A DNA stretch of 64,000 nt from Candidatus Omnitrophota bacterium. Lineage in GTDB: Bacteria; Omnitrophota; Gorgyraeia; Zapsychrales; Zapsychraceae. Every line of letters begins with the position of its first letter. Within the stretch, counting starts at the first letter, position 1. Below the pieces are notes generated by a model. The model did no database searches. It was not told the DNA's origin and saw only the letters and a list, made by a program, of their open reading frames with translations. Made by a program: the position numbers and the translations under genes. The stretch lies in the NCBI GenBank assembly GCA_028280285.1, contig JANQMA010000026.1, positions 822-64,821 of the forward strand. Reading direction: 5' to 3'. This document shows positions 13,749 to 63,505 of this stretch, piece by piece.

Positions 13749-13818
13749 TAGATCCTAGATCCTTGATTCTTGATGCTAGATATCCAGAATCTAGAATCCA
13801 GGATCAAGCATCTAGAAT
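13749..13818 (+). terminator. Heptad-periodic hairpin after paralog B
   Basis: Left arm is tagatcc tagatcc ttgattc ttgatgc tagatat. Right arm is ccagaat ctagaat ccaggat caagcat ctagaat. It starts 7 nt after the stop codon. Confidence 0.5.
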
Positions 13819-13911
13819 GTGAATTTTTTGTAACACGTCTTCGCATTTCCCAAAATCGTATAAGTCATTTATCATCAGTAGTTTAGATTTATTCTATCCT
13901 GCGCCCTCCTA

Positions 13912-13939
13912 TTGAATTCCCTCTAATTTACGTTATACT
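13912..13939 (+). promoter_or_regulatory. Putative sigma70-type promoter of giant paralog C (TTGAAT-N16-TATACT)
   Basis: TTGAAT at 13912-13917, 16-nt spacer, TATACT at 13934-13939, about 61 nt upstream of TTG 14001. Same hexamers and spacing as at 8095-8122. Confidence 0.4.
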
Positions 13940-14000
13940 TTTACTACAGTATTTCTGTGACACAGTATTGTTCAATTCTACCAAATAGAAGGAGTTACCA

Positions 14001-17000
14001 TTGAAGTCGCTTAAATCTTTCATCCTATCTAAAGTCATTTCATCGCTTACTATATTAATATTTTTATTAGGTAATATTATTATTCCAACCAATACATACG
14101 CAGAGCAAATTGCCACGCCTGTCTTTATGCCGCCTGTAGGTAGTATGATAGGCGCAAGTGAAATGTATACGCCAACGATTATCAACGGATTAATCATCAA
14201 TCCCGATGATCCACTGCAATTTTCATTCCTTGTCGATGCCGGTGATGCGAATCTTCAAGGCGAGGCGTTTAAAGAAGAGTCGCAACGCTTAGTGAATTAT
14301 TTTATGGCGGGGTTAGCTGTTCCGGAAGATGAGATATGGGTTAACTTGTCGCCCTATGAGAAAAATCGTATTGTTCCTGATGCCTTAGGGCAAACAGCGA
14401 TGGGGCGTGACTTGCTTGCCCAAGATTATTTGCTTAAACAATTTACAGCTTCTCTGATGTATCCGGAAGATGAAATGGGTAAAGCCTTCTGGAAGCGAAT
14501 TAAAGAGAAGGTAAGCACCAAACATGGCATTGATGATATCCCGACTAATATGTTTAGTAAAGTTTGGATCGTCCCAGAAAGTGCAAAGATTTATATTCAC
14601 AATATGACAGTATTTTTAACGGATAGTCATTTAAAGGTTATGCTTGAAAAAGACTATTTAGCGACGCGTGAGGCGGTAGGTGATGATGTATCGCATATGG
14701 AAACAGAGCAGGAGCTTTTATCTTCAGAAAATGTTGCCTCTATCATACGAGACATCATTATTCCTGAAATTGAGCATGAGGTAAATCATGGCAAAAACTT
14801 TGCACCTCTTCGCCAAATCTTTAACTCGGTTATTCTTGCTTCCTGGTACAAGGCGAACTTAAAAGAGTCTTTGCTCGGACAAATCTATATTGACCAAAAC
14901 AAAATCGAAGGCATTAATGACAATGCGCCGGCAACGAATCAAGCGATTTACGACCAGTATCTAGAGGCCTTTAAAGCAGGCGTTTATAATTATGTGAAAG
15001 AAGAGTATGACCCTGCAGCCCAGCAAATGGTGGCGCAAAAATATTTTTCCGGCGGGATCGCAAACGATTTTGCAGCAATGGTTGATAATTCCAAATTACA
15101 AACAGTTGGAAAAATAATGGACGGGTTGGATCCGGCCAACATATCTGATTTGCAGAATAGCAATAGTGGGAGTATTCAAAGAGTAGATGTTGAAGTAAAG
15201 CCTGAAGAAATAAATCTTACTACAGTGGATGCTGCCATTTTAGAAGAAATTTCTTACATAAAAGCACTACTGGAACTTTCCTTTGAAGAAGAAGGTAATA
15301 ATGGTGATGAGGAATTTATTGAGGAAATCATGAGCAGTACATCGAGAATAATTGATTACTTCAAAGGTGCTGAAGAAAAGGATTTTAAATCTGACTATGA
15401 AGAAACTGTCCAACACTTAGTTTGGTGGCTTGGGTTCAAATTGCGTGAGGCTAGCTCTCCTGAGGATGGGTTAAATAAGACAATTCAAGTTAATTTCTTA
15501 CATAAAGGCAATGAATATGAGTACGTAGAAAAAAATGATATTAATAGGTCGATGGTAAGGGTTAAAAGTGACAGTTGGAAGAAGGAAGTTAGTCCAATAA
15601 ATACTCCAAGTCTTGCTGAGAACATCAGTTTACTTGAAGTCATGTTGGCTAGCAGTAGGCGAAACCTTGATACACATGTAAGGCGTCCAGTCAAAAACGA
15701 TGTCATTGAGCGTGTCAGGAAATGGCCTTTATTTGTTTTTGAGAATAACGCCGAAAGAAGATGGGTTCTTGATGCGCTTACAAGGAGACGTAATAAAGAT
15801 ATTAATTTAGGTAGCCTCCAGCTTGACGGCTTTGATGCTATTTTAGACAGAATTATTTCACGCCAACTAAAGGGTCAAAAGCGTAATGTAACCGTTGACG
15901 AAAAGCAAATACTTTTAAATCCTATTAATAACAGAAAAACTCTTTACGGAGGGGCGGATATAAGCAGCATACCTATTTTGGTATTACTTAGTATTGTTGA
16001 AGAGATTTACGAGCTGAAGATGTCTAATGAGGTTATTGAGACTACCAGGAAAAAGATGGAGTCAGTTAAGGATAATACTTGGAATATAGTTCGAAAATTT
16101 ATTGATGAGCAAATGAGCGAATATGAGGATCATGAATTGGTTTGGTCGATATATACGAAACCTGATTCTGATTTTAATACAGAAACAGTGTTGGTTATTG
16201 TTCCAAAGAAAGAAAATATAGATCGAGAAAAATTTAATCGGCAGATTGGTATTTTAAGTGAAGCGATTATTGAAAATGTAAATCTTCCCGAGGGGATAAA
16301 TATATTTAAACAAGGGGATAAAAACGCTTCAGATAAAGATTTATTAATCTTCAGAGAAAAAGAAGATGTTAAATTTACTGATGCTGAATCAGGAGAAATA
16401 TTGGAGTTTTATGAAGGAGTAAAGTTGCGTATTAAGCATGCTCCCGAATTTTTCCAACTTGACGGGAAAGGTAATCAATCAGTATTATCACAAAATGACC
16501 GCGAAAAACGGGCTGTGCGCAATATTACACGTGATTTTTATTTGGATTTACGTGTGGCAGATGAAACAAAAGACGATTTAAAACGGATCGATGTCCATTA
16601 TTATTATGGGCTTTCCTCTGGTCGTCGAGGGGTTGTGCCTATTTATGTAAAACAAGATGAGGATATTAACAATATTGCTGATGCGTTGTTGTTTGGTGTG
16701 CAGAGCCAGGTTAATGAAACTAATTTTTATAGACTTATATTTAATGATGTGCGCAGTACTTTAGTTAGACTTTTTGATGGAGAAAATCAAAAAAGACTTA
16801 ACCAGTTTGATAAAATTATTGCCGAAGCGGTAAAAAAAGGAAAATTTGCAAGCGAAGCAAAAGAAAAAATCTTTAAATGGGGCAGAGAAAATCAGCAGTA
16901 TACAGATAAAGAAGGATTAGAAGAGTTTCTACGTGCGCAATACGCGACTTTTAATATTGATTCAGAAATTATACTTAAGCATCTTCTTGACTCAGACTAC

Positions 17001-17330
17001 TTTTCCCAAATAAAAGATATAGTCCGCGGGTTTGACTTGAGCGCAGATAATGCTCATCTGACACCCGGTGGTATTGACCTTAATACCAAGATGCTTGATC
17101 TTAAGCTTGAGTATGATGGCAGCAATATACTGCCTACCGTGGATCCTGCGGTCTTAAAAGACATCAACATTAAAGGGCTTACCCCAATTATTACGAATGT
17201 GGTGCCGATCAGCAATTTGCCGCTTATGCTCGGGTTTGGTGATGGGCCGGGTTCGGATGACTCCGGGCCCTATACGATGGGGTCTGTTGGCGATCTTTCC
17301 TATCTTAAGTCGCAGGAGTTATATAAGTAA
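14001..17330 (+). CDS. Giant exported-family protein, paralog C (1109 aa)
   Basis: TTG start lies 6 nt after GAAGGAG. Signal peptide ends ...PTNTYA|EQ. The N-module is about 3/4 identical to paralog A by hand count over ~150 aa. C-module is GGIDLNTKMLDLKLEYDGSNILP...GLTPIITNVVPISNLPLMLGF. The core is unique. Confidence 0.85.
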   Translation: MKSLKSFILSKVISSLTILIFLLGNIIIPTNTYAEQIATPVFMPPVGSMIGASEMYTPTIINGLIINPDDPLQFSFLVDAGDANLQGEAFKEESQRLVNYFMAGLAVPEDEIWVNLSPYEKNRIVPDALGQTAMGRDLLAQDYLLKQFTASLMYPEDEMGKAFWKRIKEKVSTKHGIDDIPTNMFSKVWIVPESAKIYIHNMTVFLTDSHLKVMLEKDYLATREAVGDDVSHMETEQELLSSENVASIIRDIIIPEIEHEVNHGKNFAPLRQIFNSVILASWYKANLKESLLGQIYIDQNKIEGINDNAPATNQAIYDQYLEAFKAGVYNYVKEEYDPAAQQMVAQKYFSGGIANDFAAMVDNSKLQTVGKIMDGLDPANISDLQNSNSGSIQRVDVEVKPEEINLTTVDAAILEEISYIKALLELSFEEEGNNGDEEFIEEIMSSTSRIIDYFKGAEEKDFKSDYEETVQHLVWWLGFKLREASSPEDGLNKTIQVNFLHKGNEYEYVEKNDINRSMVRVKSDSWKKEVSPINTPSLAENISLLEVMLASSRRNLDTHVRRPVKNDVIERVRKWPLFVFENNAERRWVLDALTRRRNKDINLGSLQLDGFDAILDRIISRQLKGQKRNVTVDEKQILLNPINNRKTLYGGADISSIPILVLLSIVEEIYELKMSNEVIETTRKKMESVKDNTWNIVRKFIDEQMSEYEDHELVWSIYTKPDSDFNTETVLVIVPKKENIDREKFNRQIGILSEAIIENVNLPEGINIFKQGDKNASDKDLLIFREKEDVKFTDAESGEILEFYEGVKLRIKHAPEFFQLDGKGNQSVLSQNDREKRAVRNITRDFYLDLRVADETKDDLKRIDVHYYYGLSSGRRGVVPIYVKQDEDINNIADALLFGVQSQVNETNFYRLIFNDVRSTLVRLFDGENQKRLNQFDKIIAEAVKKGKFASEAKEKIFKWGRENQQYTDKEGLEEFLRAQYATFNIDSEIILKHLLDSDYFSQIKDIVRGFDLSADNAHLTPGGIDLNTKMLDLKLEYDGSNILPTVDPAVLKDINIKGLTPIITNVVPISNLPLMLGFGDGPGSDDSGPYTMGSVGDLSYLKSQELYK

Positions 17331-17445
17331 TAAAATAAAGAGAGGTTATGTTTGGGCTAGAACACTGAACACTAAGTTATTGCCCTATCCGCACTTTCGT
17401 GTATAATAAACTCACCCTTTAACTTCTACTATTCTTACTAATATA

Positions 17446-18513: not shown

Positions 18514-18524
18514 ATTCGAACAAG

Positions 18525-19622: not shown

Positions 19623-20562
19623 AGATAAAAAAATAGCCTTAGTTATTCCCTGTTATAACGAAGAAAAGTTGATCAGACCGACGCTTGAAAATGTGCCGGA
19701 AAAAATCGACCGTATTTTTGTCGTCGATGATTGCAGTACAGATAATATGGATGCGGTTGTGCGTGCCTTGGCGGCGGCGGATCAGCGTATTAACTATACG
19801 CGTCACGCAACCAATCAAGGGCCGGGCCAGGCGATTATCACCGGATACAAAAAATCATCGGAGGAAGGATGTGATATCACGGTCGTTGTCGGGGGAGATT
19901 ATCAAATGCCGCTTGAGGAGGTCGACCGTTTTCTTGATCCGCTCATTGACGGCCGTGCCGATTATACCAAGGGCAACCGGTTTTTTGTCTGGGAGAAAAC
20001 GAAGGTCAAGATGCCGAAGATTCGTATTTTAGGCAATATCATCATTACCGCACTGACTAAAATGGCGTCAGGTTATTATAAGATTATGGACGTTGTCGAC
20101 GGGTATACGGCGATTACCAAAGATGCGATTGACCGTGTTGATTGGGATCGTGCATGGAAAAAGTACGGTTATCCAATGGATTTTTTGATCCGTATGAATG
20201 CCTATGGGCTTCGCGTGCGTGATATTCCACGCACGCCGATTTATTTGGAGGGTGAGAGGCAATCACAGATCAAAGGCATGAAGTATGCGCTGCGTGTCTC
20301 CCCTATGCTTGTGCGCGGATTTTTTTGGCGGATGTTTTTTAAGTATATCTATCTTGATTTTCATCCGCTGTTTTTCTTTTATATGCTTGGTCTTTTGTTT
20401 GTCCCGATTGGGCTTGTGCTCGGGTGTCATCAACTATATGCCGAGTTTTTCGGTGGGGGGGCCACAGGGCCCATGTCTATACTTTGTGCGCTGACAACGA
20501 TTACGGGTTTGCAGTTTTTATTATTCGGAATGTGGTTTGATATGGAAGTGGGAAAGGGGTAA
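19615..20562 (+). CDS. Family-2 glycosyltransferase with two C-terminal TM helices (polyprenyl-phosphate sugar synthase, ArnC/GtrB-like)
   Basis: ALVIPCYNEE...VVDDCSTDN GT-A motifs plus hydrophobic C-terminal helices. Overlaps the upstream gene by 8 nt. Confidence 0.7.
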   Translation: MYRDKKIALVIPCYNEEKLIRPTLENVPEKIDRIFVVDDCSTDNMDAVVRALAAADQRINYTRHATNQGPGQAIITGYKKSSEEGCDITVVVGGDYQMPLEEVDRFLDPLIDGRADYTKGNRFFVWEKTKVKMPKIRILGNIIITALTKMASGYYKIMDVVDGYTAITKDAIDRVDWDRAWKKYGYPMDFLIRMNAYGLRVRDIPRTPIYLEGERQSQIKGMKYALRVSPMLVRGFFWRMFFKYIYLDFHPLFFFYMLGLLFVPIGLVLGCHQLYAEFFGGGATGPMSILCALTTITGLQFLLFGMWFDMEVGKG

Positions 20563-20761
20563 AAATTAAAAAATAAAAAAGAAAAAGTAAAAAAGAAAAT
20601 TGAGAATTGAGAAAGAATGAGAATTTAAAAAATAGTATTTGGTAATTGGTAGTTAGTAATTGGTCACAACATGCATTTTTTCCAGTTTAATTTTGATTTT
20701 TAAATTTATTTAATTTTTTAATTTTTACTTTTATTTTTTCATTCTAACTTTTTAATTAGTT
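20563..20761. repeat. About 200-bp extremely AT-rich spacer with purine-strand to pyrimidine-strand switch (compound imperfect inverted repeat)
   Basis: The left half is an almost pure A/G run (gaaaatt gagaatt gagaaag aatgaga). The right half is a T-rich complement (tttttactttt...ttttcattc). The centre carries tatttggtaattggtagttagtaattggt (20636-20664), one arm of the family C element. Confidence 0.5.
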
Positions 20762-21853
20762 ATGGCAGATAATAATCGTCCAAAGAAGATACTCTTTTTT
20801 CTCAACCACCCGGCTCATTTTCATTTGTTTAAGTTTATTATCCGGCGTCTTAGAGAAAAAGACTTTGACGTTATTATTTATATTGTCACCAAAGATGTAC
20901 TGGAAGACTTGGTCAAAGCAGAGGGGTGGGACTATGTTAATCTTTTCCCAAAGGGCAGACGCAGCAAAGTTTTGCCGAAGGTATTGTCGACGGCCCTTTT
21001 TATGCTGTTGACGCAGATCAAATTGTTTCTGAAGCTCCTTTTTAACAGAGTCGATCTTTTAATCGGCAGTGAACGGACCATTACGCATGTAGGGCGGATG
21101 CTTTTTATTCCGTCTTTGTATGTCAACGAAGATGATACGATTTCCATTGATAATTACATCACGTATCCTTTTGCGACCAAAGTCATTGTGCCGGAGTGTT
21201 GCGACCGTAACCGGTGGAATGGCAAAAAGATCACGTATAATGGCAACCATGAACTGGCATATTTAAGGCCTGAGCATTTCACCCCGGATGAAGCGGTGGT
21301 AAGAAAATTTAATCCGGGTATGGAACGGTATTTCATTCTGCGTCTGGTTTCTTTAACGGCCAGTCATGATATCGGCAAACAAGGGATCAATGATGACTTT
21401 GCCCGACGGATTATTGCCACATTAGAAGAGTATGGCAAGGTGTATATCACAGCGGAAAGACCTTTGGCCGATGAGTTTGAGCGCTATCGTCTTCCGGTGG
21501 CAGCCTATGATATTCATCATGTGATGTATTTTGCCGATCTTTTTATAGGAGATAGTTTATCGATGGCGATGGAGGCCTCTGTTCTCGGTACGCCTTCTTT
21601 GCGACTCAATGATTTTGTTGGTATCATCAGTGTTCTGAATGAAATGGATGAGGATTATGAATTATCGTATGGGTTTAAGACAGATCAAAAAGAAGAATTG
21701 ATAGAAAAGCTTAAGGAGCTTTTGGCTCTTCAGGATATTAAGGATGAGTGGCGACAAAAACGCGAGCGTCTTTTAAATGACAAGGATGATGTAGTAGGAT
21801 TTTTTGTTGAGACAATAGAAAAATACGCTAATAATAGAGTAATAAAAAATTAA
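20762..21853 (+). CDS. DUF354-like protein (GT-B/epimerase-like fold, polysaccharide clusters)
   Basis: The N-terminus KILFFLNHPAHFHLFKFIIRRLREKDFDV resembles the DUF354 signature. The context is a glycan cluster. Confidence 0.45.
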   Translation: MADNNRPKKILFFLNHPAHFHLFKFIIRRLREKDFDVIIYIVTKDVLEDLVKAEGWDYVNLFPKGRRSKVLPKVLSTALFMLLTQIKLFLKLLFNRVDLLIGSERTITHVGRMLFIPSLYVNEDDTISIDNYITYPFATKVIVPECCDRNRWNGKKITYNGNHELAYLRPEHFTPDEAVVRKFNPGMERYFILRLVSLTASHDIGKQGINDDFARRIIATLEEYGKVYITAERPLADEFERYRLPVAAYDIHHVMYFADLFIGDSLSMAMEASVLGTPSLRLNDFVGIISVLNEMDEDYELSYGFKTDQKEELIEKLKELLALQDIKDEWRQKRERLLNDKDDVVGFFVETIEKYANNRVIKN

Positions 21854-21920
21854 GTGGTCTGTTGTCTGTGGTCAGTGGTCATAAACTAAAACTGATCACA
21901 GAGCACCGAACACAGAACAC
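21854..21920 (+). terminator. Heptad-periodic hairpin
   Basis: Left arm gtggtct gttgtct gtggtca gtggtca, 10-nt loop, right arm ctgatca cagagca ccgaaca cagaaca. It starts 1 nt after the stop. Confidence 0.55.
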
Positions 21921-28000: not shown

Positions 28001-28069
28001 AGGTTTCGGGTTTTAGGTGTTAGGTTTTAAAAAACAGACCTAACACCCAACACCTCAAACCTTACACCT
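28001..28069 (+). terminator. Heptad-periodic hairpin, family A (aggtgtt / aacacct)
   Basis: Left arm aggtttc gggtttt aggtgtt aggtttt. Right arm cagacct aacaccc aacacct caaacct tacacct. It starts 5 nt after the def stop. Confidence 0.55.
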
Positions 28070-29970: not shown

Positions 29971-30364
29971 GGAGCAAAGAGCGGGGCTTATCCGCTATAT
30001 TGAACTTAAAAGCCCCCAAGGCAATAATTCTGTAACCATTGTTTTTGATGGAAAAGAAGATGTTTATTCGCCTGCCGTTGATTCGAAGGTCAGAATTATT
30101 TATACGAAGGGTGAGTCGGCGGATGAGAAGATCAAGAAGATGGTTAAGGCCTCTTCTCAGGTCAAGTCGATTGTTGTGGTGACTGATGACCGGGACATTC
30201 AATATTCGGTGAGAGCCGCCGGAGCTAAAATAAGCAGCGTACATGATTTTTTACATCAAAAACCAGCTCCCAAGTCGGGCCGAAGCCGTAAGGTGTCCAG
30301 AGAGTCTGAGCAAAAAATCAATGAAGAATTGAAAGATATCTGGCTAAAAGATAATAATGAATGA
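29897..30364 (+). CDS. YacP/Rae1-like NYN (PIN-like) domain protein
   Basis: MSLQYLLDGYNLIH... and VVTDDRDIQ motifs. The start is uncertain (29873 or 29897); either one overlaps the upstream gene. Confidence 0.6.
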   Translation: MSLQYLLDGYNLIHKMANLSSKKLEEQRAGLIRYIELKSPQGNNSVTIVFDGKEDVYSPAVDSKVRIIYTKGESADEKIKKMVKASSQVKSIVVVTDDRDIQYSVRAAGAKISSVHDFLHQKPAPKSGRSRKVSRESEQKINEELKDIWLKDNNE

Positions 30365-30431
30365 TAGGAGGTGTTAGGTTGTAGGTGTTGGGTGCTAGTA
30401 TACTAAAACCTAAAACCCAGAACCTAACACC
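30365..30431 (+). terminator. Heptad-periodic hairpin, family A
   Basis: Left arm aggtgtt aggttgt aggtgtt gggtgct, then loop, then right arm taaaacc taaaacc cagaacc taacacc, followed by tttt. It abuts the stop codon. Confidence 0.6.
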
Positions 30432-30454
30432 TTTTATCATTTTCTTTTACTACT

Positions 30455-31226: not shown

Positions 31227-31565
31227 ATGAATAATAAAGTATGTACCACAATTACCGCCCTATTCTGTATTTTTACTATTTTGACTATGATTTCATGTCA
31301 AACGACTACAAGTAGAAGGCATTTGGACCGCAGTTATCCCTTTGAGGCTATTGAAGCGGATTGGATTGTAAATGGTGAGCCGATAGAGTTTGAAGGAGAA
31401 CAATGGTATCCTCAGGATGGTATCGAAGTCTTTACAGATCAGGAAATGCATTTGCTTGGTGAGTATCGTGATGTTCAGTTTTTTGTCGATAAAGTGGATG
31501 TGCGGCCGTTTGCGCGGCTCTATACGAAGTTTGATAATAATAAGTTCCGTTATTATAAAAAATGA
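31227..31565 (+). CDS. Small lipoprotein of unknown function inserted in the mla operon
   Basis: Signal peptide with lipobox LTMISC. Tightly packed between mlaE and mlaF, with a 4-nt overlap with mlaF. Confidence 0.5.
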   Translation: MNNKVCTTITALFCIFTILTMISCQTTTSRRHLDRSYPFEAIEADWIVNGEPIEFEGEQWYPQDGIEVFTDQEMHLLGEYRDVQFFVDKVDVRPFARLYTKFDNNKFRYYKK

Positions 31566-32294: not shown

Positions 32295-32363
32295 GTACTT
32301 AGGACATAGGACTTGGGACTTAGGGTGCCAACCTCCAGGTCCTAAGTCCCAACGCCTAAGTAC
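32295..32363 (+). terminator. Heptad-periodic hairpin
   Basis: Left arm gtactta ggacata ggacttg ggactta. Right arm ccaggtc ctaagtc ccaacgc ctaagta. Confidence 0.55.
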
Positions 32364-33481: not shown

Positions 33482-33561
33482 AAACATTTTAAAACATTAA
33501 ACTTTAAACACTTAACAGATTTATTTCCAAACAGTTTAATGTTTATTGTTTAAAGTTTGAA
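33482..33561 (+). terminator. Heptad-periodic hairpin, family B (aaacatt / gtttaat)
   Basis: Left arm aaacatt aaacttt aaacact. Right arm gtttaat gtttatt gtttaaa gtttgaa. Confidence 0.45.
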
Positions 33562-34145: not shown

Positions 34146-34218
34146 TAGGGAGTAGGGAATAGGGCATAGGGAACAGTGTTACACTTACTGTTACCTAACC
34201 CCTAATCCCTATTCCCTA
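34146..34218 (+). terminator. Heptad-periodic hairpin
   Basis: Left arm tagggag tagggaa tagggca tagggaa, then loop, then right arm ttaccta accccta atcccta ttcccta. It starts 3 nt after the stop. Confidence 0.6.
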
Positions 34219-34706: not shown

Positions 34707-35381
34707 ATGCTTTCGGTTATCATCCCTGTCTATAATGAAGAAAGGACCGTATCAGAAGTTATTGATAAGGTCCTTTCTTCTAGCCTGCCTACGAAACTTT
34801 CTTTAGAGATTATTGCCATTAATGACGGTTCAACTGACGGGACACGTGCTATTCTTGATAACATCAAGTATCCGCAGCTGCGCGTTTTTCATCAGGAGAC
34901 CAATCGGGGAAAGACGTCAGCTGTTAGAAAGGGGATTTTTGAAGCAAAGGGTTCATTGATCATTATCCAAGATGCCGATCTAGAATATTCACCGGTTGAT
35001 TATGCCGCTATTATTCAGAAAATGGATGATACTGGTGCAGAGGTAGTGTACGGCTCCAGATTTCTAGGAGAGATCAAGGATATGGCGCCGATCAATTGGA
35101 TGGCTAATCGCATATCGAATATTGTCTTTAACTTAAAGTTTAAAACGAATATTACAGATATTAATACATGTTTTAAATTATTTAAAGCGGATGTGCTTAA
35201 ACAATTAACCATTGAGTCTGATCATTTTGGTTTTGAAACCGAGGTTACCACCAAGCTAATACGGCAGGGAGTAAGGATCATCGAAACGCCCATTTCTTAT
35301 CATGCGCGCACCAAAGCCGAAGGTAAAAAAATCGATTGGGCTAAGGCGGTGCAAATGTTTTTAGGGATGTTTAGATATTAA
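34707..35381 (+). CDS. Family-2 glycosyltransferase (soluble, Dpm1/polyprenol-phosphate glycosyltransferase-like)
   Basis: SVIIPVYNEE...AINDGSTDGT...IQDADLEY GT-A motifs. Confidence 0.7.
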   Translation: MLSVIIPVYNEERTVSEVIDKVLSSSLPTKLSLEIIAINDGSTDGTRAILDNIKYPQLRVFHQETNRGKTSAVRKGIFEAKGSLIIIQDADLEYSPVDYAAIIQKMDDTGAEVVYGSRFLGEIKDMAPINWMANRISNIVFNLKFKTNITDINTCFKLFKADVLKQLTIESDHFGFETEVTTKLIRQGVRIIETPISYHARTKAEGKKIDWAKAVQMFLGMFRY

Positions 35382-35395
35382 ACTAGGAGGCTAGT

Positions 35396-36328
35396 TTAAT
35401 ACGGTTTTAAGCTGATCCGGGCGAGCTGCTCGCTGAAAGTTAAACGGCCCAGTTTTTTTGACTTATCTATTTCTGCTTGAATTACCGCAGCAGCTTTTTT
35501 CTTATCGACTCTATTTAGAATTTCTTTCATCATCACAAGTGTATCAATCTGATAAGGATTTTGAACAAGAATCTTCTGGGCGATCTTAACCGCCTGGTCG
35601 CCTTTGTTGTTTTTTAAGGCGATTTGAGCCAGGGCATAATTATAAAATGTTTCTCGTTTAGGGTCTATTTTTTTGCCGAGATTAATATGCTGCACTGCCC
35701 GGGGTGTTTGATTTAAAGTAAGGTAGCATTTAAGTAGGAGTGCATTTGCGTTTTGTTTGGCAATGAGTAGTTCATTTTGTAACTCTTTAGGGCCCGTGAT
35801 GCCTGCAGTCTTTAAAACAGGTCCATAAATCATAGGAGAGTGTAGGGTTTTTAAAATGGTTGATTTTTCATTGGCCTGCATAGCCAGTGTTAATGATTGT
35901 GCGGCAAGGTCGTATTTTTTTTCTTTGTGGTAAATAATACCTGCATTATAGTGTGCCCAAAACCAATCGGGATATTTTTTGCTGACGTGGTTATAGGCTT
36001 CTAGGGCTTTTTGATGTTGTCCTAAAGCTGCATATGTGGCGCCGAGCAGACCCCATGCCGCAGTCATATCGGGCCTGAATTCAATGGCTTTTTTGTAATA
36101 AAAGTTAATTTGGTTGAGCGTGCGTGGATTGATATTTTCGTCATTATGTTCCAATATCGATAATAGATGATGATAATGATAAGGCTTTGGAATAGATGCA
36201 TTTAATGTCCGGACATGATAGGCATTTTTGATTTTTTGATTATCCGTCAGCAGATTACAGCAAACAAATACGGCGATATACAGTAGAAGGACTCTAGTAA
36301 TAAAAGGTTTTATTTTTTTAAGCATCAT
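35396..36328 (-). CDS. TPR-repeat protein with N-terminal membrane anchor
   Basis: Hydrophobic N-terminus followed by repeated A..Y/W..G...Y TPR-like units. Last gene of the minus-strand operon. Confidence 0.6.
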   Translation of the reverse strand: MMLKKIKPFITRVLLLYIAVFVCCNLLTDNQKIKNAYHVRTLNASIPKPYHYHHLLSILEHNDENINPRTLNQINFYYKKAIEFRPDMTAAWGLLGATYAALGQHQKALEAYNHVSKKYPDWFWAHYNAGIIYHKEKKYDLAAQSLTLAMQANEKSTILKTLHSPMIYGPVLKTAGITGPKELQNELLIAKQNANALLLKCYLTLNQTPRAVQHINLGKKIDPKRETFYNYALAQIALKNNKGDQAVKIAQKILVQNPYQIDTLVMMKEILNRVDKKKAAAVIQAEIDKSKKLGRLTFSEQLARISLKPY

Positions 36329-41857: not shown

Positions 41858-41863
41858 TAAATT

Positions 41864-41977
41864 TTATTCGGTTATAGTTACGGTTGCGAAGCCCGCTTCG
41901 TATGTTCGTTTAACGGTTGTCGTCATAAAACACGTTTAACGTAACCAAAAGCCGATACGGGCATCGATACCGAATAA
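41864..41977. repeat. Long imperfect inverted repeat with TTATTCGG...CCGAATAA ends (family D-related)
   Basis: ttattcgg at 41864-41871 pairs with ccgaataa at 41970-41977. Inner pairing is cggttgcgaagcccg with cgggcatcgataccg. The arm resembles 45191-45221 and 55389-55418. Confidence 0.35.
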
Positions 41978-42015
41978 CGAATGACATAACCGGATTATTG
42001 ATAAACTGAAAAAAT

Positions 42016-45190: not shown

Positions 45191-45221
45191 TTATTCGGCT
45201 CGAGTTAGCCGCTTGCATTGG
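45191..45221. repeat. Solo arm copy of the family D element
   Basis: ttattcggctcgagttagccgcttgcattgg matches 55389-55418 (ttattggttcgagttggccgcttgcattgg) at 28 of 31 positions. Confidence 0.6.
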
Positions 45222-45251
45222 AATACTACCTGACAAACTGGTGGAGTTATT

Positions 45252-45986: not shown

Positions 45987-46691
45987 ATGTCCTCAATGAC
46001 GATAGCGATCGGCCTCTGTATTATCACGGTTATTTGTTTAGGTATTATCTTTATGATGCCTGATGAAAAGTCTATGGCGCAGAAAAGAAAACAAGAAAAG
46101 GCCGAAAGACGCCGTGAGAGGAAACAAGAACAGCAGACATCGCACAAAGATTGGGAAAAAACCGCTCGGCGCTATCAATCTCAACTGCACCAAGTCAAAA
46201 ATGAATTAGAGTCCCATGCTCAGCAGATACGTGAGCTTCAAAAACAGCTTTTAGCTGAGCAGGTTAAGACAGAAAAAATTAAAGAAAAATATAATAAAGT
46301 AAAAGAGTGGATTGCCAAAAAAGAAAGTGATGTCGGTAAAAAAGAAAAAGGAATGACGGATATCAAACAGGAGTTAAAAAAGGTTCAAGATCTTTATAGT
46401 GATGAGCATGTTAAAAATATTCATCTGCAAAAGCAACTGGATGAGCTTAAAAAAGAGCATGAATTAACCGTTGAACAAAGACGCCTGGCTGAAAATGAAA
46501 GCGCGACCCTCAAGGCGAAAAACGACATCCACCGTCAAGAAATAGCTCATCTCAAAAAGGACATCGCGATCTTAACCAAAAAAAAGAATGACGAAACCTT
46601 TGTGGCGCGGTCTGAGTTTTTAAAACTCGAAAAAGAATTAAAAGAAAAAAATAAAGAAATAGAACGCCTTAATCGGCAAAAAGAAAGTTAA
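45987..46691 (+). CDS. Membrane-anchored coiled-coil protein
   Basis: N-terminal TM helix followed by a K/E/Q-rich heptad-like sequence. Confidence 0.5.
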   Translation: MSSMTIAIGLCIITVICLGIIFMMPDEKSMAQKRKQEKAERRRERKQEQQTSHKDWEKTARRYQSQLHQVKNELESHAQQIRELQKQLLAEQVKTEKIKEKYNKVKEWIAKKESDVGKKEKGMTDIKQELKKVQDLYSDEHVKNIHLQKQLDELKKEHELTVEQRRLAENESATLKAKNDIHRQEIAHLKKDIAILTKKKNDETFVARSEFLKLEKELKEKNKEIERLNRQKES

Positions 46692-46742
46692 AGGGGTCAG
46701 AGCATTTTTTCATTCATGATGAAAAAATGCTCTGACCCCTTT
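46692..46742 (+). terminator. Canonical intrinsic terminator (perfect 22-bp stem, 5-nt loop, T-run)
   Basis: aggggtcagagcattttttcat (46692-46713) pairs perfectly with atgaaaaaatgctctgacccct (46719-46740), followed by tt. Confidence 0.85.
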
Positions 46743-51099: not shown

Positions 51100-51158
51100 A
51101 AACAATAAACTTTAAACATTAAACAGGCTTGTTTAATGTTTAGTGTTTAAAGTTTAAT
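51100..51158 (+). terminator. Heptad-periodic hairpin, family B
   Basis: Left arm aaacaat aaacttt aaacatt aaacagg. Right arm gtttaat gtttagt gtttaaa gtttaat. Confidence 0.55.
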
Positions 51159-51166: not shown

Positions 51167-51889
51167 ATGACCAAAATAAGACTACAAGTTTTCCTCTCCC
51201 GCAATGGCGTTTGTTCCCGCCGGGAGGCCATGGGACTTATTAAGGAAGGCCATGTTTCGGTCAATGGTCAAAAACAGGCGGAGCCGTCTTTTGCGGTTGA
51301 TCCGGATAAAGATAAAATTTGTTTTAAGGGAAAAGTAATTGAAACAAAACAATTAGAGTATGCACTTTTTCATAAACCACAAGGATATGTGACAACCAAG
51401 GCCGATCACGGTAGTCAGAAAAATATTTACAAAATTCTGCCGAACAAGTATAAACATTTGCTGCCTGTCGGGCGTTTGGATAAAAATACAGAAGGTTTGC
51501 TGTTATTGACCAATGATGGTGATTTGGCCTTTGCTTTAACGCATCCTAAGTTTCATGTCGATAAGACATATTTTGTTATTGCCAAAGGCGATGTAGAGCT
51601 AAAAACCATCAGCCGTTTGGAAACGGGTGTTGTGATTGAAGGCGGCAAAACGGCACCGGCGAAAATAAAAGAAGTTAGAAGTAAGGGGCGTGATACGCAT
51701 TTGAAAATAACCATTCATGAAGGCAAGAAGCGTCAAATACGACTTATGTTTGAGGCCGTGGGGCATAAGGTGAAATATTTAAAACGGTTAACCCAGGGGC
51801 CTATTGGATTGGGTTCATTGCCGGTTGGTAAGACGCGTGAACTTGATCGAAAAGAGATCAAGGCATTAAAGGCCATAAGCCATAGGTAA
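51167..51889 (+). CDS. rluB: Pseudouridine synthase, RsuA/RluB family
   Basis: N-terminal S4 domain (RLQVFLSRNGVCSRREA) and catalytic GRLDKNTEGLLLLTNDG. Confidence 0.75.
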   Translation: MTKIRLQVFLSRNGVCSRREAMGLIKEGHVSVNGQKQAEPSFAVDPDKDKICFKGKVIETKQLEYALFHKPQGYVTTKADHGSQKNIYKILPNKYKHLLPVGRLDKNTEGLLLLTNDGDLAFALTHPKFHVDKTYFVIAKGDVELKTISRLETGVVIEGGKTAPAKIKEVRSKGRDTHLKITIHEGKKRQIRLMFEAVGHKVKYLKRLTQGPIGLGSLPVGKTRELDRKEIKALKAISHR

Positions 51890-51949
51890 TAGGTTTTAGG
51901 TGTTAGGTGCTAGGAGACTAAAACCTAAAACCCATAACCTAACACCCCG
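51884..51949 (+). terminator. Heptad-periodic hairpin, family A
   Basis: Left arm taggtaa taggttt taggtgt taggtgc tagg. Right arm ctaaaac ctaaaac ccataac ctaacac. The first heptamer contains the rluB stop codon. Confidence 0.6.
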
Positions 51950-55347: not shown

Positions 55348-55388
55348 TCTCGTATTTTTGTGTAATATGGTCACGTAATTAGGGAGTC

Positions 55389-55504
55389 TTATTGGTTCGA
55401 GTTGGCCGCTTGCATTGGATTGTTGAGTGACTGAAATCGTCTTCTAAAAGGTAAACGATTTCCGGAACGAAACAACCAATGCAGAAGCCCAACGAGAACA
55501 ATAA
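55389..55504. repeat. Rod-like long hairpin I (family D), nested stems
   Basis: Outer arm ttattggttcgagttggccgcttgcattgg... pairs with ...ccaatgcagaagcccaacgagaacaataa. Inner perfect stem is gaaatcgt (55433-55440) with acgatttc (55455-55462). Confidence 0.6.
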
Positions 55505-55512
55505 TTAAGGCT

Positions 55513-55630
55513 CTCGGGGTTCTGTATTGTATTGCTCCACTTTTGGGATTTCGTTCACTTGGCAAATCGAGCAAAGCGAGATTAATAAACGAAATCAATC
55601 GTTACGCAATACAATACAACCGGCCTCGAG
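55513..55630. repeat. Rod-like long hairpin II, nested stems
   Basis: Outer arm ctcggggttctgtattgtattgc pairs with gcaatacaatacaaccggcctcgag (13 bp perfect). Inner perfect stem is gatttcgtt (55547-55555) with aacgaaatc (55588-55596). Confidence 0.6.
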
Positions 55631-55649
55631 CCGGAAGTTTATTCACAAC

Positions 55650-56912: not shown

Positions 56913-57582
56913 TTGTTTCGGCGATGATGTGCTTGCGGCCATTACAGATGTGTCGACGGATTTTAAACTTACACCCGAGGACAATGATTTAAACGACACG
57001 CAGCGCACCTTTCTTAAAAATAATTTAAATCTAGATGATGTGGTTAATATCCGTCAGGTGCATGGCAACAGAGTTGTCTACGCACAAAGTAGTGATCAAC
57101 CGATCGAAGAGGCGGATGCCCTTATCACCGACAAAACAAATATTCCTATTACAATCCGCACCGCTGATTGTGTGCCGGTATTTATGTATGATCCGGCCCA
57201 TCATGTTATCGGTATTGTTCATGCCGGCTGGCAGAGCACGCATAAAAAAATTGTACAAACGACACTTGATATGTTAAAAGAGAAATTCGAAACTGATCCA
57301 AAAGATGTTAAGGTTTACATTGGTCCCTGCATTCGTAAAACAAGTTTTGAAGTAGGGCCTGAGTTTAAAGAGTATTTTCCGGATGAATATGAAGCTATTG
57401 ACGGTCAGGGGTTTGTTGATGTTGCCGAGGCGAATAAAAATCAGCTGCGTAGCCTAGGTGTTGTGGATAAAAATATTGAAGATTGTGGGGAAGATACGTA
57501 TACTGATAGCAATTGGTTTTCATTCCGCCGAGATGGTGAAGCCGCCGGGCGGATGCTGCATGTGATGATGCTTAAGGGTTGA
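56899..57582 (+). CDS. pgeF: YfiH/PgeF-family (DUF152, laccase-domain) protein
   Basis: RQVHGNRVV, TADCVPV and HAGWQ motifs. GGGAG lies 6 nt before ATG 56899. Confidence 0.75.
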   Translation: MRRIDCFGDDVLAAITDVSTDFKLTPEDNDLNDTQRTFLKNNLNLDDVVNIRQVHGNRVVYAQSSDQPIEEADALITDKTNIPITIRTADCVPVFMYDPAHHVIGIVHAGWQSTHKKIVQTTLDMLKEKFETDPKDVKVYIGPCIRKTSFEVGPEFKEYFPDEYEAIDGQGFVDVAEANKNQLRSLGVVDKNIEDCGEDTYTDSNWFSFRRDGEAAGRMLHVMMLKG

Positions 57583-57607
57583 GGGTAATTGAGTAATATG
57601 GAAAAAT

Positions 57608-57688
57608 GTAATTAGTAGTTAGTAATTGGTAATTGGTGGCCAATGTAGAATTTAGCTGACTAATTACTAAATACCAATTACCAAATAC
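57608..57688 (+). terminator. Heptad-periodic hairpin, family C (gtaattg / ccaatta)
   Basis: Left arm gtaatta gtagtta gtaattg gtaattg. Right arm ctaatta ctaaata ccaatta ccaaata. Confidence 0.55.
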
Positions 57689-59528: not shown

Positions 59529-59635
59529 TTGTACTCCCTTATATAAATATATGAATAGTTTCAACGATTATACGATTGCCTTTGTGATTTGACAAGGCGT
59601 TTTTGCCTGCAGCTTCGCTGCAGCGATAAATTCGC

Positions 59636-59664
59636 TTTACATTTCCAATACCCATGGCTATAAT
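59636..59664 (+). promoter_or_regulatory. Putative sigma70 promoter for hisG (TTTACA-N17-TATAAT)
   Basis: TTTACA at 59636-59641, 17-nt spacer, TATAAT at 59659-59664. This leaves a leader of about 130 nt before ATG 59804. Confidence 0.45.
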
Positions 59665-59803
59665 ACGCTCTGTTTTATTAATGAGCCTTCAACTTATGAA
59701 GCCAAAGGCGAACATAAGTTTTTAGGCGAATTAATCCCGAGTTGCTGTCTTTAGCTGTTAGCAACGAGGGACCTAGTATAATATTTATAAATACGAGAGA
59801 TTT

Positions 59804-60685: not shown

Positions 60686-60698
60686 AATAAAATTGATT

Positions 60699-60775
60699 AA
60701 ACTTTAAACAATAAACATTAAACTGTTTGGCAAGATGTGAGTATATTGTTTAATGTTTAAAGTTTATTGTTTAAA
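60699..60775 (+). terminator. Heptad-periodic hairpin, family B
   Basis: Left arm aaacttt aaacaat aaacatt aaactgt, then loop, then right arm gtttaat gtttaaa gtttatt gtttaaa. Confidence 0.55.
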
Positions 60776-60808
60776 AATAATCCAAAACATTATCAGTCAG
60801 GTTACAAT

Positions 60809-60910
60809 ATGCCTTGCGGTAAAAAAAGAAAAGCCAGAAAAATTAGAACACATAAGCGTAAAAAACTACGCAAATCTATGCGTCACTTAAAGAAACGTAA
60901 ATCGCGTTAA
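60809..60910 (+). CDS. 33-aa highly basic protein, bS22-like (AURKAIP1/COX24-type) small ribosomal protein candidate; absent from the ORF track
   Basis: Hand translation gives MPCGKKRKARKIRTHKRKKLRKSMRHLKKRKSR*. This matches my recollection of the MPxGKKRK..K..THKRKK.LRK.RH pattern of bS22-type proteins. Confidence 0.55.
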   Translation: MPCGKKRKARKIRTHKRKKLRKSMRHLKKRKSR

Positions 60911-60959
60911 TTCTTTACTTTCCTTGCATCAAATCGCCTACAGGGTGAACAGGAGTGAC

Positions 60960-61964
60960 ATGTTGGATAAAAGCAGACAAAAGTTAGTGGGCATTCTCAT
61001 TGCAATGATGCTCGTCGTTGCTTATCCAAAACAGGTGTGTGCCTTTGCATTCCAAGATCGCGTAGCTACCGCCAAGAGCCTTGCGCATTACATGACAGGC
61101 CAGATTTATGATCTTCTTGGGGATCCTAAACGCGCTGCCATGGCGTATAAGGCGGCGTCTCAGTTTGATCCTTCCAGCTATTTAATTCGTCTTCGTCTTG
61201 GCGTTGATTATGCCCGGCTTAATATGTTGGGAGCCGCCGTTGAAGAGCTTAATATGGTCGGTGAGCTCAATAAAGACGAACTGCAGTCACACTATCTGCT
61301 TGCCCTTATTTATTCTTCGACACGACAGTTTGATAAAGCCGCGGAAGAATACGAGTATATTCTAACCACATTTTCTGAGTCAGACCCGAAGAATATCGAG
61401 ATCCATGGGTATCTTGGTCAGCTTTATTATTCTCAAAAAAAATATGATCAGGCCTTAAAACAGTTTGAACAGATTTATGCCTTGGAACCGGAGAATGCCG
61501 ATATTATGTATCTTCTAGGCTCTCTGTATATTGAAACCGGAAGAAGTGAAGAGGCATTTGAGATCTTAAATAAATCTATTAAAATTAACCCTAATCACGA
61601 CGGTAGTTTAAATACTTTGGCCTACATGTATGCCGAAGAGAACCGCAATTTAGATGAGGCGCTTGAGTATGTCAAACTGGCGATTAGTTTGTCCCCTGAC
61701 AACGGGGCCTATATCGATACCTTAGGATGGGTTTATTTTAAGAAAAAAGAATACAAAAAGGCTTTAGAGGCTTTGGAAGATGCCAATGCATTACTTAAGG
61801 ATCCTATCATACTTGATCATCTCGGTGATGTTTATATGAAGTTGAACAAACCTGATAAAGCGATCGAAAATTGGGAAGCTTCGTTAAAACTTAAGCCCGC
61901 TCAAGAAGAAGTTACGCGCAAGTTAAACGAGGCCCGCAACAACAGTGCCCACCGTACCGAATAA
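60960..61964 (+). CDS. TPR-repeat protein with signal/anchor sequence
   Basis: ATG 60960 follows AGGAG. Hydrophobic N-terminus followed by about 7 TPR units (A..Y......P.N...L..LG.VY). Confidence 0.65.
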   Translation: MLDKSRQKLVGILIAMMLVVAYPKQVCAFAFQDRVATAKSLAHYMTGQIYDLLGDPKRAAMAYKAASQFDPSSYLIRLRLGVDYARLNMLGAAVEELNMVGELNKDELQSHYLLALIYSSTRQFDKAAEEYEYILTTFSESDPKNIEIHGYLGQLYYSQKKYDQALKQFEQIYALEPENADIMYLLGSLYIETGRSEEAFEILNKSIKINPNHDGSLNTLAYMYAEENRNLDEALEYVKLAISLSPDNGAYIDTLGWVYFKKKEYKKALEALEDANALLKDPIILDHLGDVYMKLNKPDKAIENWEASLKLKPAQEEVTRKLNEARNNSAHRTE

Positions 61965-61972
61965 CGACAAAC

Positions 61973-62902
61973 ATGAACACCCTCACCCTCAAGTCCCCGG
62001 CTAAAGTCAATCTCTATTTAGAGGTTCTCAACAAGCGCGCCGACGGCTTTCACTCGATTGAGACAGTTTTTGAGAGACTTGATTTATGCGATGAAATAAC
62101 CTTTAAAAAGACGGCCAAAGATGGTATTACGATCAAATGTGCACATCCGCATGTCCCCTGTGGGCCTAAGAATTTGGTCCATAAAGTGGCCGTCCGGATC
62201 CAAAAAGATTTTGGTATTAGTGCTGGCGTAACCGTAACGATTAAAAAAAATATCCCGGTGGCGGCCGGCCTGGCCGGGGGCTCCAGTAATGCGGCAACGA
62301 CTCTTTTGGCTCTTAACCAGTTGTGGAATATAGGTTTAAGTAAATCCCAGCTTGATCGCTATGCAGCTGATCTTGGGAGCGATATTAATTTTTTCCTTAA
62401 TAAAGCCAGTTTTGCCCTTGGCACCGACCGTGGCCAAGTGATCCAAAAGCTTAATATTAGACGGAAATTGTGGCATATTGTGGTTGTCCCCAAGGTTAAA
62501 GTTTATGCGAAAGATGTCTACCAAAGCCTGTCCATTTCACCTGCCTCAGATGCTGTAACTACCCGTCAAACCAGGAGGTTAGGATCCAAAGCGGAAGGTG
62601 TCACGAATGTGTTGACAAAGAAGAAGCAAGGTGTTAATATTCTAATCCATCATTTGGAAAAAGGCAGTCCTTTGCACATTGCGCAGGGGATGAGCAATGA
62701 TTTACAGCAGGTGGTTATCGGTCTTTGTCCTAAATTAGAGAAATTGCAGAAGAAGCTTAAGTCATTGAATGCTAAGGGGGTTATGGTTTCAGGAAGTGGC
62801 CCTGCGGTGTTCGGCTTAACTGATTCTCAAAAAGAAGCGCAGGAAATAAAACGTATTTTAACCAAAACGTATAGCCAGGTCTACGTAACGAGAACTCTTT
62901 AG
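61973..62902 (+). CDS. ispE: 4-diphosphocytidyl-2-C-methyl-D-erythritol kinase
   Basis: SPAKVNLYLEV..KRADGFH and the GHMP motif PVAAGLAGGSSNAA. Confidence 0.85.
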   Translation: MNTLTLKSPAKVNLYLEVLNKRADGFHSIETVFERLDLCDEITFKKTAKDGITIKCAHPHVPCGPKNLVHKVAVRIQKDFGISAGVTVTIKKNIPVAAGLAGGSSNAATTLLALNQLWNIGLSKSQLDRYAADLGSDINFFLNKASFALGTDRGQVIQKLNIRRKLWHIVVVPKVKVYAKDVYQSLSISPASDAVTTRQTRRLGSKAEGVTNVLTKKKQGVNILIHHLEKGSPLHIAQGMSNDLQQVVIGLCPKLEKLQKKLKSLNAKGVMVSGSGPAVFGLTDSQKEAQEIKRILTKTYSQVYVTRTL

Positions 62903-62916
62903 AAAGAGGGGCGCCT

Positions 62917-63288
62917 ATGGAAGTGACAGAAGTTCGTGTCTTCCCAAAGGAAGGACAGGATAAAAAGTTAAAGGCATATGCAACAATTACGTTTGAAGAT
63001 GCGTTTGTTGTCAGAAACATTAAGGTTATAGAAGGTTCGAATGGACTTTTTATCGCTATGCCGTCGCGTAAAAATAAAATTTCGTGTTTAAGTTGCGGTT
63101 TTAAGAACGAAATCGGCAGCAAATTTTGTAATCAATGCGGTGTGAGGATTAATGAAGAAAGAGATCTCTCCGCAATCGATGTTAAGAACGAACATCGGGA
63201 CATTGCGCATCCTATCACGCAGCAATTTCGCGACTATCTACAGCAAAAAATCCTTAGTGAGTACAGTCGAGAAGTCGCTTCTGTATAG
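62917..63288 (+). CDS. spoVG: SpoVG-family protein with a zinc-ribbon insertion
   Basis: MEVTEVRV...KAYATITFEDAFVVRNIKVIEGSNGLFIAMPSRK and RDIAHPIT match the SpoVG core. A CLSC...CNQC insert sits between them. Confidence 0.8.
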   Translation: MEVTEVRVFPKEGQDKKLKAYATITFEDAFVVRNIKVIEGSNGLFIAMPSRKNKISCLSCGFKNEIGSKFCNQCGVRINEERDLSAIDVKNEHRDIAHPITQQFRDYLQQKILSEYSREVASV

Positions 63289-63340
63289 GGTTTAGATAGT
63301 TTTTCTGCTTAACCGGTAGAAAATTTCATATTTAAACGAA

Positions 63341-63411
63341 TGCCCGGTGGTGTAATGGTAGCACACGAGAATTTGGATCTCGTTGTCTAGGTTCGAGTCC
63401 TGGCTGGGCAG
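63341..63411 (+). tRNA. tRNA-Gln (anticodon TTG)
   Basis: Hand-folded cloverleaf. Acceptor TGCCCGG/CTGGGCA (U1-A72). D arm GTGT-AATGGTA-GCAC. Anticodon arm CGAGA-ATTTGGA-TCTCG. T arm CTAGG-TTCGAGT-CCTGG. No encoded CCA. Confidence 0.85.
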
Positions 63412-63429
63412 TTTATGTTGTCTAAGTAA

Positions 63430-63505
63430 GCGAGCATGGATGCTCGTTGCTGGTCGCTCGTCGCTCGCAAAAATCGAGCATCAAGCATCAAGCATCGAGC
63501 AACGA
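63430..63505 (+). terminator. Heptad-periodic hairpin after tRNA-Gln
   Basis: Left arm tcgttgc tggtcgc tcgtcgc, loop caaaaa, right arm tcgagca tcaagca tcaagca tcgagca. Followed by aaaaaa then ATG. Confidence 0.5.

Follow-up and report, generated by a model that had tools for sequence, protein, structure and literature searches.

How do long hairpins with arms of tandem seven-nucleotide units come to stand between the genes of a compact bacterial genome, and what, if anything, do they do there? The question is raised by 64,000 nt of the chromosome of a Candidatus Omnitrophota bacterium (the window throughout; one genome is sampled), for which an original prediction had listed 12 intergenic elements of this kind. 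We checked the sequence at all of these coordinates, and the 12 sites are indeed hairpins whose arms are degenerate tandem 7-mers and their complements; the 7-mers that had been quoted also match the sequence at the listed sites. An atypical 13th element was added (Table 1). The genes among which the elements lie are ordinary chromosomal ones (polysaccharide synthesis, def, an mla-like operon, ybaB, greA, SpoU, RluB-type, ABC-F, rmuC and hisG). Coding sequence takes up 93.8% of the window, and 27% of the non-coding remainder (6.2%) consists of the 13 elements.

The 7-nt periodicity is strong and exclusive. A segment was counted as periodic if it matched itself at a given lag at 17 or more of 21 positions, with 20 dinucleotide-preserving shuffles as controls. 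At lag 7 the window contains 17 such segments, against a shuffle mean of 0.05 (maximum 1), so that the signal predicted to exceed shuffled controls does so; lags 4–6 and 8–12 give only 0–1 segments each. With a looser threshold, 27 of 29 period-7 segments fall within the 13 elements, all in non-coding DNA. Tandem Repeats Finder reports period-7 arrays at 12 of the 12 sites and both arms at 10, a single arm being listed only at 30365 and 32295. Within the arrays the spacing is strictly 7 nt, and each unit has a conserved core with one or two variable positions. Between elements, the wide sequence difference that had been described is real in that at least eight unrelated 7-mer units are used, but it is not complete, as at least three paralogous families exist. 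An assembly artefact was ruled out, since an independent Logan assembly of the same sequencing run (SRR20820735) is identical to the window, with 0 mismatches, across 34146–34218 and 51884–51949. Such hairpins do disrupt short-read assemblies; two Logan contigs break off exactly within elements of family B (window positions 33531 and 51097).

Table 1. Heptamer elements of the window, with their folds, their settings and the state of the same junction in relatives (MFE, minimum free energy; ORF, open reading frame; SD, Shine-Dalgarno sequence; z relative to shuffled sequences)
Positions	Unit or family	MFE (kcal/mol)	z	Setting in the window	Same junction in relatives
13749–13818	TAGATCC hairpin	−27.4	−5.0	6 nt past stop of 1859-aa ORF; next ORF 182 nt downstream	
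20558–20757	Atypical 13th element; long hairpin, A-rich (TAAAAAA/AATTGAG) vs T-rich	−30.4		Occupies entire 199-nt spacer; clear period 7 on left side only	
20635–20664	Solo GGTAATT ×4 array, one arm			In loop of 20558–20757	
21854–21920	GTGGTCT hairpin	−25.1	−4.0	Right after stop at 21853; next ATG 25 nt beyond its end	
28001–28069	Family A (AGGTKTT) hairpin	−28.6	−5.9	Peptide deformylase (def) / radical-SAM junction, 76 nt; 4 nt past stop, 3 nt before ATG	Overlap TAATG (L003, L005)
30365–30431	Family A hairpin	−30.6	−4.9	NYN / MlaE junction, 90 nt; 0 nt from stop	8 nt (L002)
32295–32363	TTAGGAC hairpin	−38.1	−7.5	ABC ATPase / MlaD-like junction, 95 nt	6 nt (L002)
33482–33561	Family B (AAACWTT) hairpin	−14.2	−2.8	128 nt past YggT-like ORF, ~30 nt ahead of ybaB	
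34146–34218	TAGGGAA hairpin	−44.1	−7.3	77-aa ORF / greA junction, 89 nt; stop 2 nt upstream, conserved greA SD downstream	18–20 nt
51100–51158	Family B hairpin	−20.9	−6.0	SpoU methylase / RluB-like junction, 82 nt, nearly all element	2-nt gap (L030/L031, 74% identical)
51884–51949	Family A hairpin	−23.5	−3.3	RluB-like / ABC-F junction, 78 nt, nearly all element; overlaps the RluB-like gene and provides its stop codon	4-nt overlap (L030/L031)
57584–57688	Family C (GGTAATT) hairpin	−21.9	−3.3	Array begins 1 nt after stop at 57582	
60696–60775	Family B hairpin	−19.8	−4.2	~10 nt past hisG stop; next ORF 148 nt downstream	
63430–63505	GCTCGTC hairpin, weakest fold	−28.2	−1.9	18 nt past tRNA-Gln; 3 nt before ATG of putative glmU-like ORF (by eye)	

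At six junctions a filled site in the window can be compared with the corresponding site in relatives, a check that had been proposed with the prediction. The MlaE-like protein has its relatives almost entirely in Candidatus Omnitrophota metagenome-assembled genomes (63–79% identity), which keep the gene order across ~8 kb. As Table 1 shows, the six junctions are empty in the relatives, where the neighboring genes overlap or lie 2–20 nt apart. The RluB-like protein differs from that of the 74%-identical relative in the C-terminal tail, which element 51884 replaces, and the first 30 residues of the ABC-F protein are identical between the two genomes. At greA the AAGGAG Shine-Dalgarno sequence is retained, and the insert sits precisely between it and the stop codon. 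Because the same junctions are empty in the nearest relatives, these comparisons show that the elements are recent, lineage-specific additions inside units that are co-transcribed in the relatives. The relatives have 74–79% protein identity, so the exact borders of the inserts cannot be set, and comparing filled with empty sites shows no clear duplication, the mark that would be expected around the terminal inverted repeats of an IS-derived MITE. In 24 related loci (377 kb) there are 0.05 period-7 segments per kb versus 0.39 in the window, ~7-fold fewer, which together with the empty sites bears out the earlier proposal of a lineage-specific element. A few relatives have heptamer-arm hairpins of their own at other junctions: 30 nt after greA, between convergent genes (L003); after the radical-SAM gene (L015); and immediately after a stop codon (L011). 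The phenomenon is therefore present in the phylum and expanded in this lineage. As a separate observation, a (TTAGTCT)n array lies inside coding sequence in several related loci (L011 10773–10830, L015 3969–4025, L023 648–705 and L007 874–930) and codes for the hydrophobic core in the signal peptide of a lipoprotein (MRVFGLLSLVFSLLFLAGC); the orthologous window ORF, 31227–31565, has a lipoprotein-like N-terminus without the array.

Several elements are copies of one another. The family A elements 30365–30431 and 51884–51949 share 86% identity across 63 nt that include the loop. In family B, which groups 51100 with 33482 and 60696, the element at 33482–33561 is homologous to 60696–60775 in the opposite orientation, again including the loop. 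The family C element had been placed at 57608–57688; its right arm, 57657–57688, matches the reverse complement of the 32 nt around the solo array (~20634–20665) at 30 of 32 positions. These dispersed paralogous families, with their loops, indicate that the elements probably move, or are copied, from one locus to another. The palindrome of element 30365 also runs for 7 perfect bp past its arrays (30355–30445), pairing AATGATA, which includes the upstream stop codon, with TATCATT. This extension would be expected if one arm had served as template for the other, and suggests such an event. When metagenomes were scanned for the right arm of family A, nine heterogeneous loci were returned, which are uninformative on copy number in this organism. 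Three of the contigs matched (L036, L037 and L040) hold 5–8 period-7 arrays per 13 kb, and L040 has two long hairpins of G/T-rich against C/A-rich heptamers (1268–1359 and 1442–1572); a further metagenome locus, L033, is probably a telomere-type repeat.

Folding against 200 shuffles per element, another check suggested at the outset, gives a single long imperfect hairpin for all 12 elements (MFE −14.2 to −44.1 kcal/mol, z −1.9 to −7.5), and for 8 of them none of the 200 shuffles folds as well. The start regions downstream remain largely unpaired. Pairing in several registers shifted by 7 nt had been anticipated and is found. The fraction of complementary positions between the arms is 0.73 in the best register, 0.64–0.67 at ±7, 0.53–0.59 at ±14, 0.42–0.48 at ±21 and ~0.27 at all other offsets, and as the best register was picked as the maximum, its small lead is partly a selection effect. 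A single specific conserved helix was ruled out on these grounds. Summed over the elements, the MFE comes to −322 kcal/mol on the sense (+) strand and −316 kcal/mol on the antisense (−) strand. The best registers contain 283 Watson-Crick oppositions, 15 G·U, 16 A·C and 59 other mismatches, where each A·C opposition counts as G·U on the opposite strand. Neither the MFE of the two strands nor the G·U and A·C counts reveal a sense-strand RNA signature. Strand symmetry and register freedom thus point to an origin at the level of DNA, not to a selected RNA helix, and the extension at 30365 favors DNA-level generation as well. In an Rfam search of the window tRNA-Gln alone passes its gathering score and no element matches a family; sub-threshold scores of 25–29 bits (thresholds 55–105) are seen against miRNA-precursor models.

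Nearly all genes of the window are on the plus strand (exceptions ~5), so every spacer serves as the 3' end for one gene and as the 5' end for the next. The elements had been described as gene-3'-end structures, all following plus-strand genes and most beginning 0–7 nt after the stop codon. That description is too narrow. Only 6 of the 12 begin at this distance or overlap the stop, and the remaining elements begin 10–25 nt after it, with the exceptions of 33482 (128 nt) and 63430, which comes after tRNA-Gln and thus no coding gene. The single overlap with a stop codon that had been reported is correct and belongs to 51884 in the RluB-like gene. The right arm ends 3–36 nt before the next start codon in 9 of the 12, so that they are equally gene-5' elements. 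Stops in all three sense frames occur in 8 of the 12 elements versus 5.7 expected, which is uncompelling. For the left arms alone the count is 5 versus 0.85, an excess that a 7-nt unit containing a stop triplet gives trivially.

We lean, without great assurance, toward the view that the elements are heptanucleotide-repeat palindromes of the STRR type known from filamentous cyanobacteria, generated at the DNA level, kept because they do little harm, and REP-like in their effect on RNA. Replication slippage in 7-nt steps would generate the arrays, and the evolution by heptamer slippage put forward in the original prediction is plausible given the degenerate arrays and multiple registers. Intrastrand template switching may then copy one arm onto the other, in one case with the adjacent stop-codon region; copying or mobility may spread the elements between loci, and they would persist only at harmless sites. 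The insert is self-complementary, so it should fold as a self-contained domain in the polycistronic mRNA and leave the start region largely unpaired. The hairpin would loop out and hold the stop and the next start close together, and such self-folding would explain why inserts are tolerated at formerly coupled junctions. The likeness to REP elements that had been proposed holds in that these are dispersed, intergenic, imperfect palindromes. REP sequences are established stabilizers of the mRNA upstream of them, and RNase III cleaves Correia elements. By analogy, the effect of the hairpins on RNA is most likely to be that of a barrier to 3'-to-5' exonucleases, protecting the upstream mRNA; it is possible that they also, or instead, act as sites of pausing or double-strand processing and so modulate expression within the operon.

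Several observations weigh against this view. The RNA-level effects would be carried over from what is known of other repeats, REP and Correia. Three of the spacers are long (after 13742, 57582 and 60685), and even there only 1–10 nt separate element and stop by the starts of the arrays, or 6–25 nt by the coordinates first proposed, which hints at a function, or a target, directed at the 3' end, beyond mere tolerance. That 27% of the spacer DNA in a 94% coding genome is given over to the elements might argue for selection. No transposase is found among the 28 ORFs with Pfam matches (38 of ~60 window ORFs were scanned), and no mobilizing enzyme or target-site duplication is seen for the elements in the window; no convincing duplications or conserved flanks surround them, the flanks being merely AT-rich. 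The inverted copies of family B could reflect flip-flop of the loop within the palindrome in place of insertion in both directions. Finally, 64 kb of one genome gives small statistics for copy number and orientation.

Because of the stop-hugging in the long spacers, a functional explanation stays alive, though we consider it unlikely: the elements may be selected RNA structures, namely intercistronic or 3' stem-loops that stabilize mRNA, uncouple cistrons through RNase III or couple translation, for which a heptamer make-up is merely an easy route. All of the elements fold well above their shuffles, they begin at or just past stops even where the spacer is long, Shine-Dalgarno and start regions stay free, a large portion of scarce non-coding DNA is occupied, and the same roles have been proposed for STRR hairpins (PMC2670836). 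Set against this are the missing sense-strand signature (G·U 15 versus A·C 16, and equal MFE on both strands) and the lack of a preferred register; moreover, the same operons manage without the elements in relatives, and element positions differ among lineages. It is improbable that the elements punctuate operons as terminators or attenuators of a factor-independent, U-tract-less or leaky kind. Long stable hairpins right after stops would suit such a role, L003 has one between convergent genes, and a T6 run lies 5 nt downstream of 13749–13818. However, the genes overlap at the same junctions in relatives and are thus co-transcribed, so the hairpins can hardly be efficient terminators, and efficient intrinsic termination is unlikely. 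No element receives a terminator-like call in the terminator-like scan, and where the prediction had most of them lacking the T-run, none has a terminator-type T tail. The 9 elements that end 3–36 nt before the next start have no promoter-like site in between; indeed, the scan of the window finds none between any element and the next gene, and the overlapping or 2–20-nt junctions of relatives leave no room for a promoter. The stems are imperfect and mostly AT-rich, those of family B reaching only −14 to −21 kcal/mol. As a general role, then, termination is not supported, given the six operon junctions.

Even less probable, in our estimation, is that the elements are binding-site arrays for a protein that reads 7-nt units, with the hairpin as a switch to be opened or closed by that protein; candidates would be an RNA chaperone with a cold-shock domain or OB fold, or a DNA-binding protein such as gyrase or IHF as at REP/BIME. 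The strict 7-nt quantization of a conserved core with one or two variable positions per unit is what such arrays would show, and CspB is reviewed as binding heptamer repeats at a ratio of one protein to each unit (PMC4679880). With at least eight unrelated 7-mers, units are wholly different between elements, which makes a sequence-specific binder unlikely, and no candidate protein was identified in the window. Integron attC-like recombination sites after gene cassettes are scarcely credible. Those too are variable imperfect palindromes directly after the stops of same-strand genes, and GTTAGGT and ACCTAAC of family A fit the core motifs GTTRRRY and RYYYAAC. The motifs are in the wrong arms, however, and the canonical arrangement (RYYYAAC in the 5' arm, GTTRRRY in the 3' arm) occurs in 0 of the 13 elements; the flanking genes are housekeeping genes in phylum-wide synteny, not cassettes, and there is no integrase in the window.

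Returning to the STRR-type reading, the elements are not, as had been supposed, without described counterparts with heptad-periodic arms: STRR hairpins (PMC2670836) and Xanthomonas GGGAATC pairs (PMC4692102) are published. For STRR sequences, which in filamentous cyanobacteria usually repeat every 7 bp, effects on transcript stability or translational coupling have been proposed, and an array and its complement can form a hairpin between co-directional genes, as in hupS-hupL (PMC2670836). The elements of the window are alike in their tandem degenerate 7-nt units, their many unrelated sequences and their dispersal mainly between genes (13 loci in 64 kb), and in the pairing of an array with a complementary array between genes. 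They differ in range, though not in architecture, as the window belongs to Omnitrophota (its relatives are metagenome-assembled genomes of that phylum, and greA is present) and STRR to heterocystous cyanobacteria. The same two facts led us to reject a cyanobacterial source for the window itself. The same lag-7 test was run on two Nostoc plasmids, over 100 kb of pNPUN01, from N. punctiforme, and over 50 kb of pCC7120alpha. In pNPUN01 the first 50 kb contain nine period-7 segments, with one tight hairpin (GAGTAAT arms, L042 44814–44886) between same-strand genes and three wider inverted pairs. The second 50 kb hold no arrays and no hairpin, and the 50 kb of pCC7120alpha have three solo arrays and no hairpin, so that density is patchy in Nostoc plasmids. 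Unlike these Nostoc samples, in which the arrays are mostly solo or widely spaced, the window has nearly every array in a tight hairpin, at a higher local density. Mazel and colleagues reportedly gave CCCCAGT, TTGGTCA and CAACAGT as the units of STRR1–3 in 1990. None of these units occurs as a tandem dimer in the window, the nearest arm consensus being two mismatches away, and TAACTGA, GGGAATC and GGGGATT are likewise not in tandem anywhere in the window. Two further arrangements in pNPUN01 are of note in their own right: inverted AGGAGTC and GACTCCT arrays flank a small gene for a "four helix bundle protein" (L042 1554–2005), and arrays of the same two units flank the spacer before the neighboring upstream gene (L042 959–1088), an arrangement that looks like a cassette bounded by heptamer arrays.

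Other published heptamer systems are similar in part. In Xanthomonas, GGGAATC forms 70–75 convergent array pairs on opposite strands that are capable of stem-loops or cruciforms (Rehm et al. 2015, PMC4692102), and there the arrays vary in length across close species while the site is kept (PMC4692102). Like the GGGAATC and GGGGAYT heptamer arrays of Xanthomonas and Nostoc, the window elements are intergenic, and they share the paired arrangement of the Xanthomonas ones. The closest is 34146, whose unit TAGGGAA is one mismatch from GGGAATC and whose left arm contains the sole canonical G-quadruplex motif in the 64 kb (GGGAGTAGGGAATAGGGCATAGGG, 34148–34171). It is alone in having a G3 unit with such a motif; whereas one G-rich unit dominates in Xanthomonas, the window uses at least eight, most of them not G-quadruplex-capable. 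Direct TAACTGA repeats just upstream of starts are found in marine Beggiatoaceae, some Cyanobacteria and Bacteroidetes (MacGregor 2015, PMC4679880), with a post-transcriptional role proposed and one inverted case in 170 sets (PMC4679880). They are also intergenic heptamer arrays a few nucleotides from start codons with stop codons within the unit, but are direct repeats of a single unit, where the window has inverted pairs of many units. In Nostoc 7120, a regulatory role has been suggested for heptamer repeats close to start codons (bioRxiv 10.1101/2022.06.06.494920), and polymerase slippage favoring heptamers is attributed to Mrázek et al. 2007 in passages of PMC4679880 and PMC4692102. Like REP/BIME, REPIN, SMAG and Correia/NEMIS sequences, the window elements are dispersed imperfect palindromes between co-transcribed genes that would be transcribed as hairpins. 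REP families have one palindromic consensus of 20–40 nt in many copies, a GTAG/CGTC head and a link to the RAYT (Y1 HUH) transposase (PMC3733652, PMC3116915). In contrast, the window elements have no common consensus, occur in families of two or three copies and have 7-nt periodic arms, and no RAYT is among the Pfam matches for the 38 ORFs scanned. The likeness to intrinsic terminators is limited to the hairpin directly downstream of a stop; the elements differ in lacking a U tract, in their 25–35-nt stems with regular mismatches and in their position inside operons.

In the literature library searched, no paper links Omnitrophota with heptamer repeats. What is new here is the heptanucleotide-repeat (STRR-type) kind in Omnitrophota, an unusually consistent hairpin form, and the clean evidence for insertion at operon junctions. 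As a long shot, the heptamer palindromes of Omnitrophota, Nostocales, Xanthomonas and Beggiatoaceae may be products of one unrecognized active DNA process. A dedicated enzyme could be responsible, or a property of a polymerase or primase, with a 7-nt footprint; arrays would be seeded at stop codons, mirrored by template switching and copied to new junctions. If so, it would be a new transposase-less, self-expanding element that remodels operon junctions.

Many bacteria have an over-representation of heptanucleotide arrays, which were on record by 1990, and how these arise and what they do is a long-standing question. The locus supplies clean comparative material on this old question, in that phylum-conserved operons are empty in relatives and filled in this lineage, although no existing view is overturned. 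The comparison shows gain at the stop/start junctions of co-transcribed housekeeping genes, with some elements being mutual copies, and brings the heptamer phenomenon into a phylum whose members are ultra-small and uncultured and have compact genomes. In annotation, hairpins of this kind should not count as operon boundaries.

Beyond the elements, the window has further features of structure and composition. GC skew is positive in every 2-kb bin of 1–64000 (+0.02 to +0.25, and at least +0.09 except in two bins), which suggests that the whole window is probably on one leading-strand replichore. Given this uniform skew and the gene orientation, the orientations of transcription and replication are inseparable in the window. 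Three consecutive giant ORFs, 17–8059, 8163–13742 and 14001–17330, encode 2680, 1859 and 1109 aa, and the latter two have zero Pfam matches; giant proteins are in keeping with Omnitrophota genomes. Two convergent genes are 14 nt apart at 35381–35396, with no hairpin or terminator-like site between them. The palindrome at 46692–46742, earlier called a classical perfect terminator, is indeed perfect (23 bp, −37 kcal/mol, z −10.5) and directly follows a gene ending at 46691, but the terminator-like call is on the minus strand only, and just TTT follows on the plus strand. When 15 further spacers (mostly >70 nt) were folded, about half gave a stable hairpin, heptamer-based or not, and several were weakly structured. 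A long unique hairpin of −44 kcal/mol (41858–42015) fills a 158-nt spacer. Finally, an intergenic repeat that is not 7-periodic, TTATT(C)GGYTCGAGTTRGCCGCTTGCATTGGA, is present in the same orientation at 45191–45222 and 55388–55419 (~30/32 identical), the second copy being within a long hairpin at 55348–55526 (−61.5 kcal/mol).

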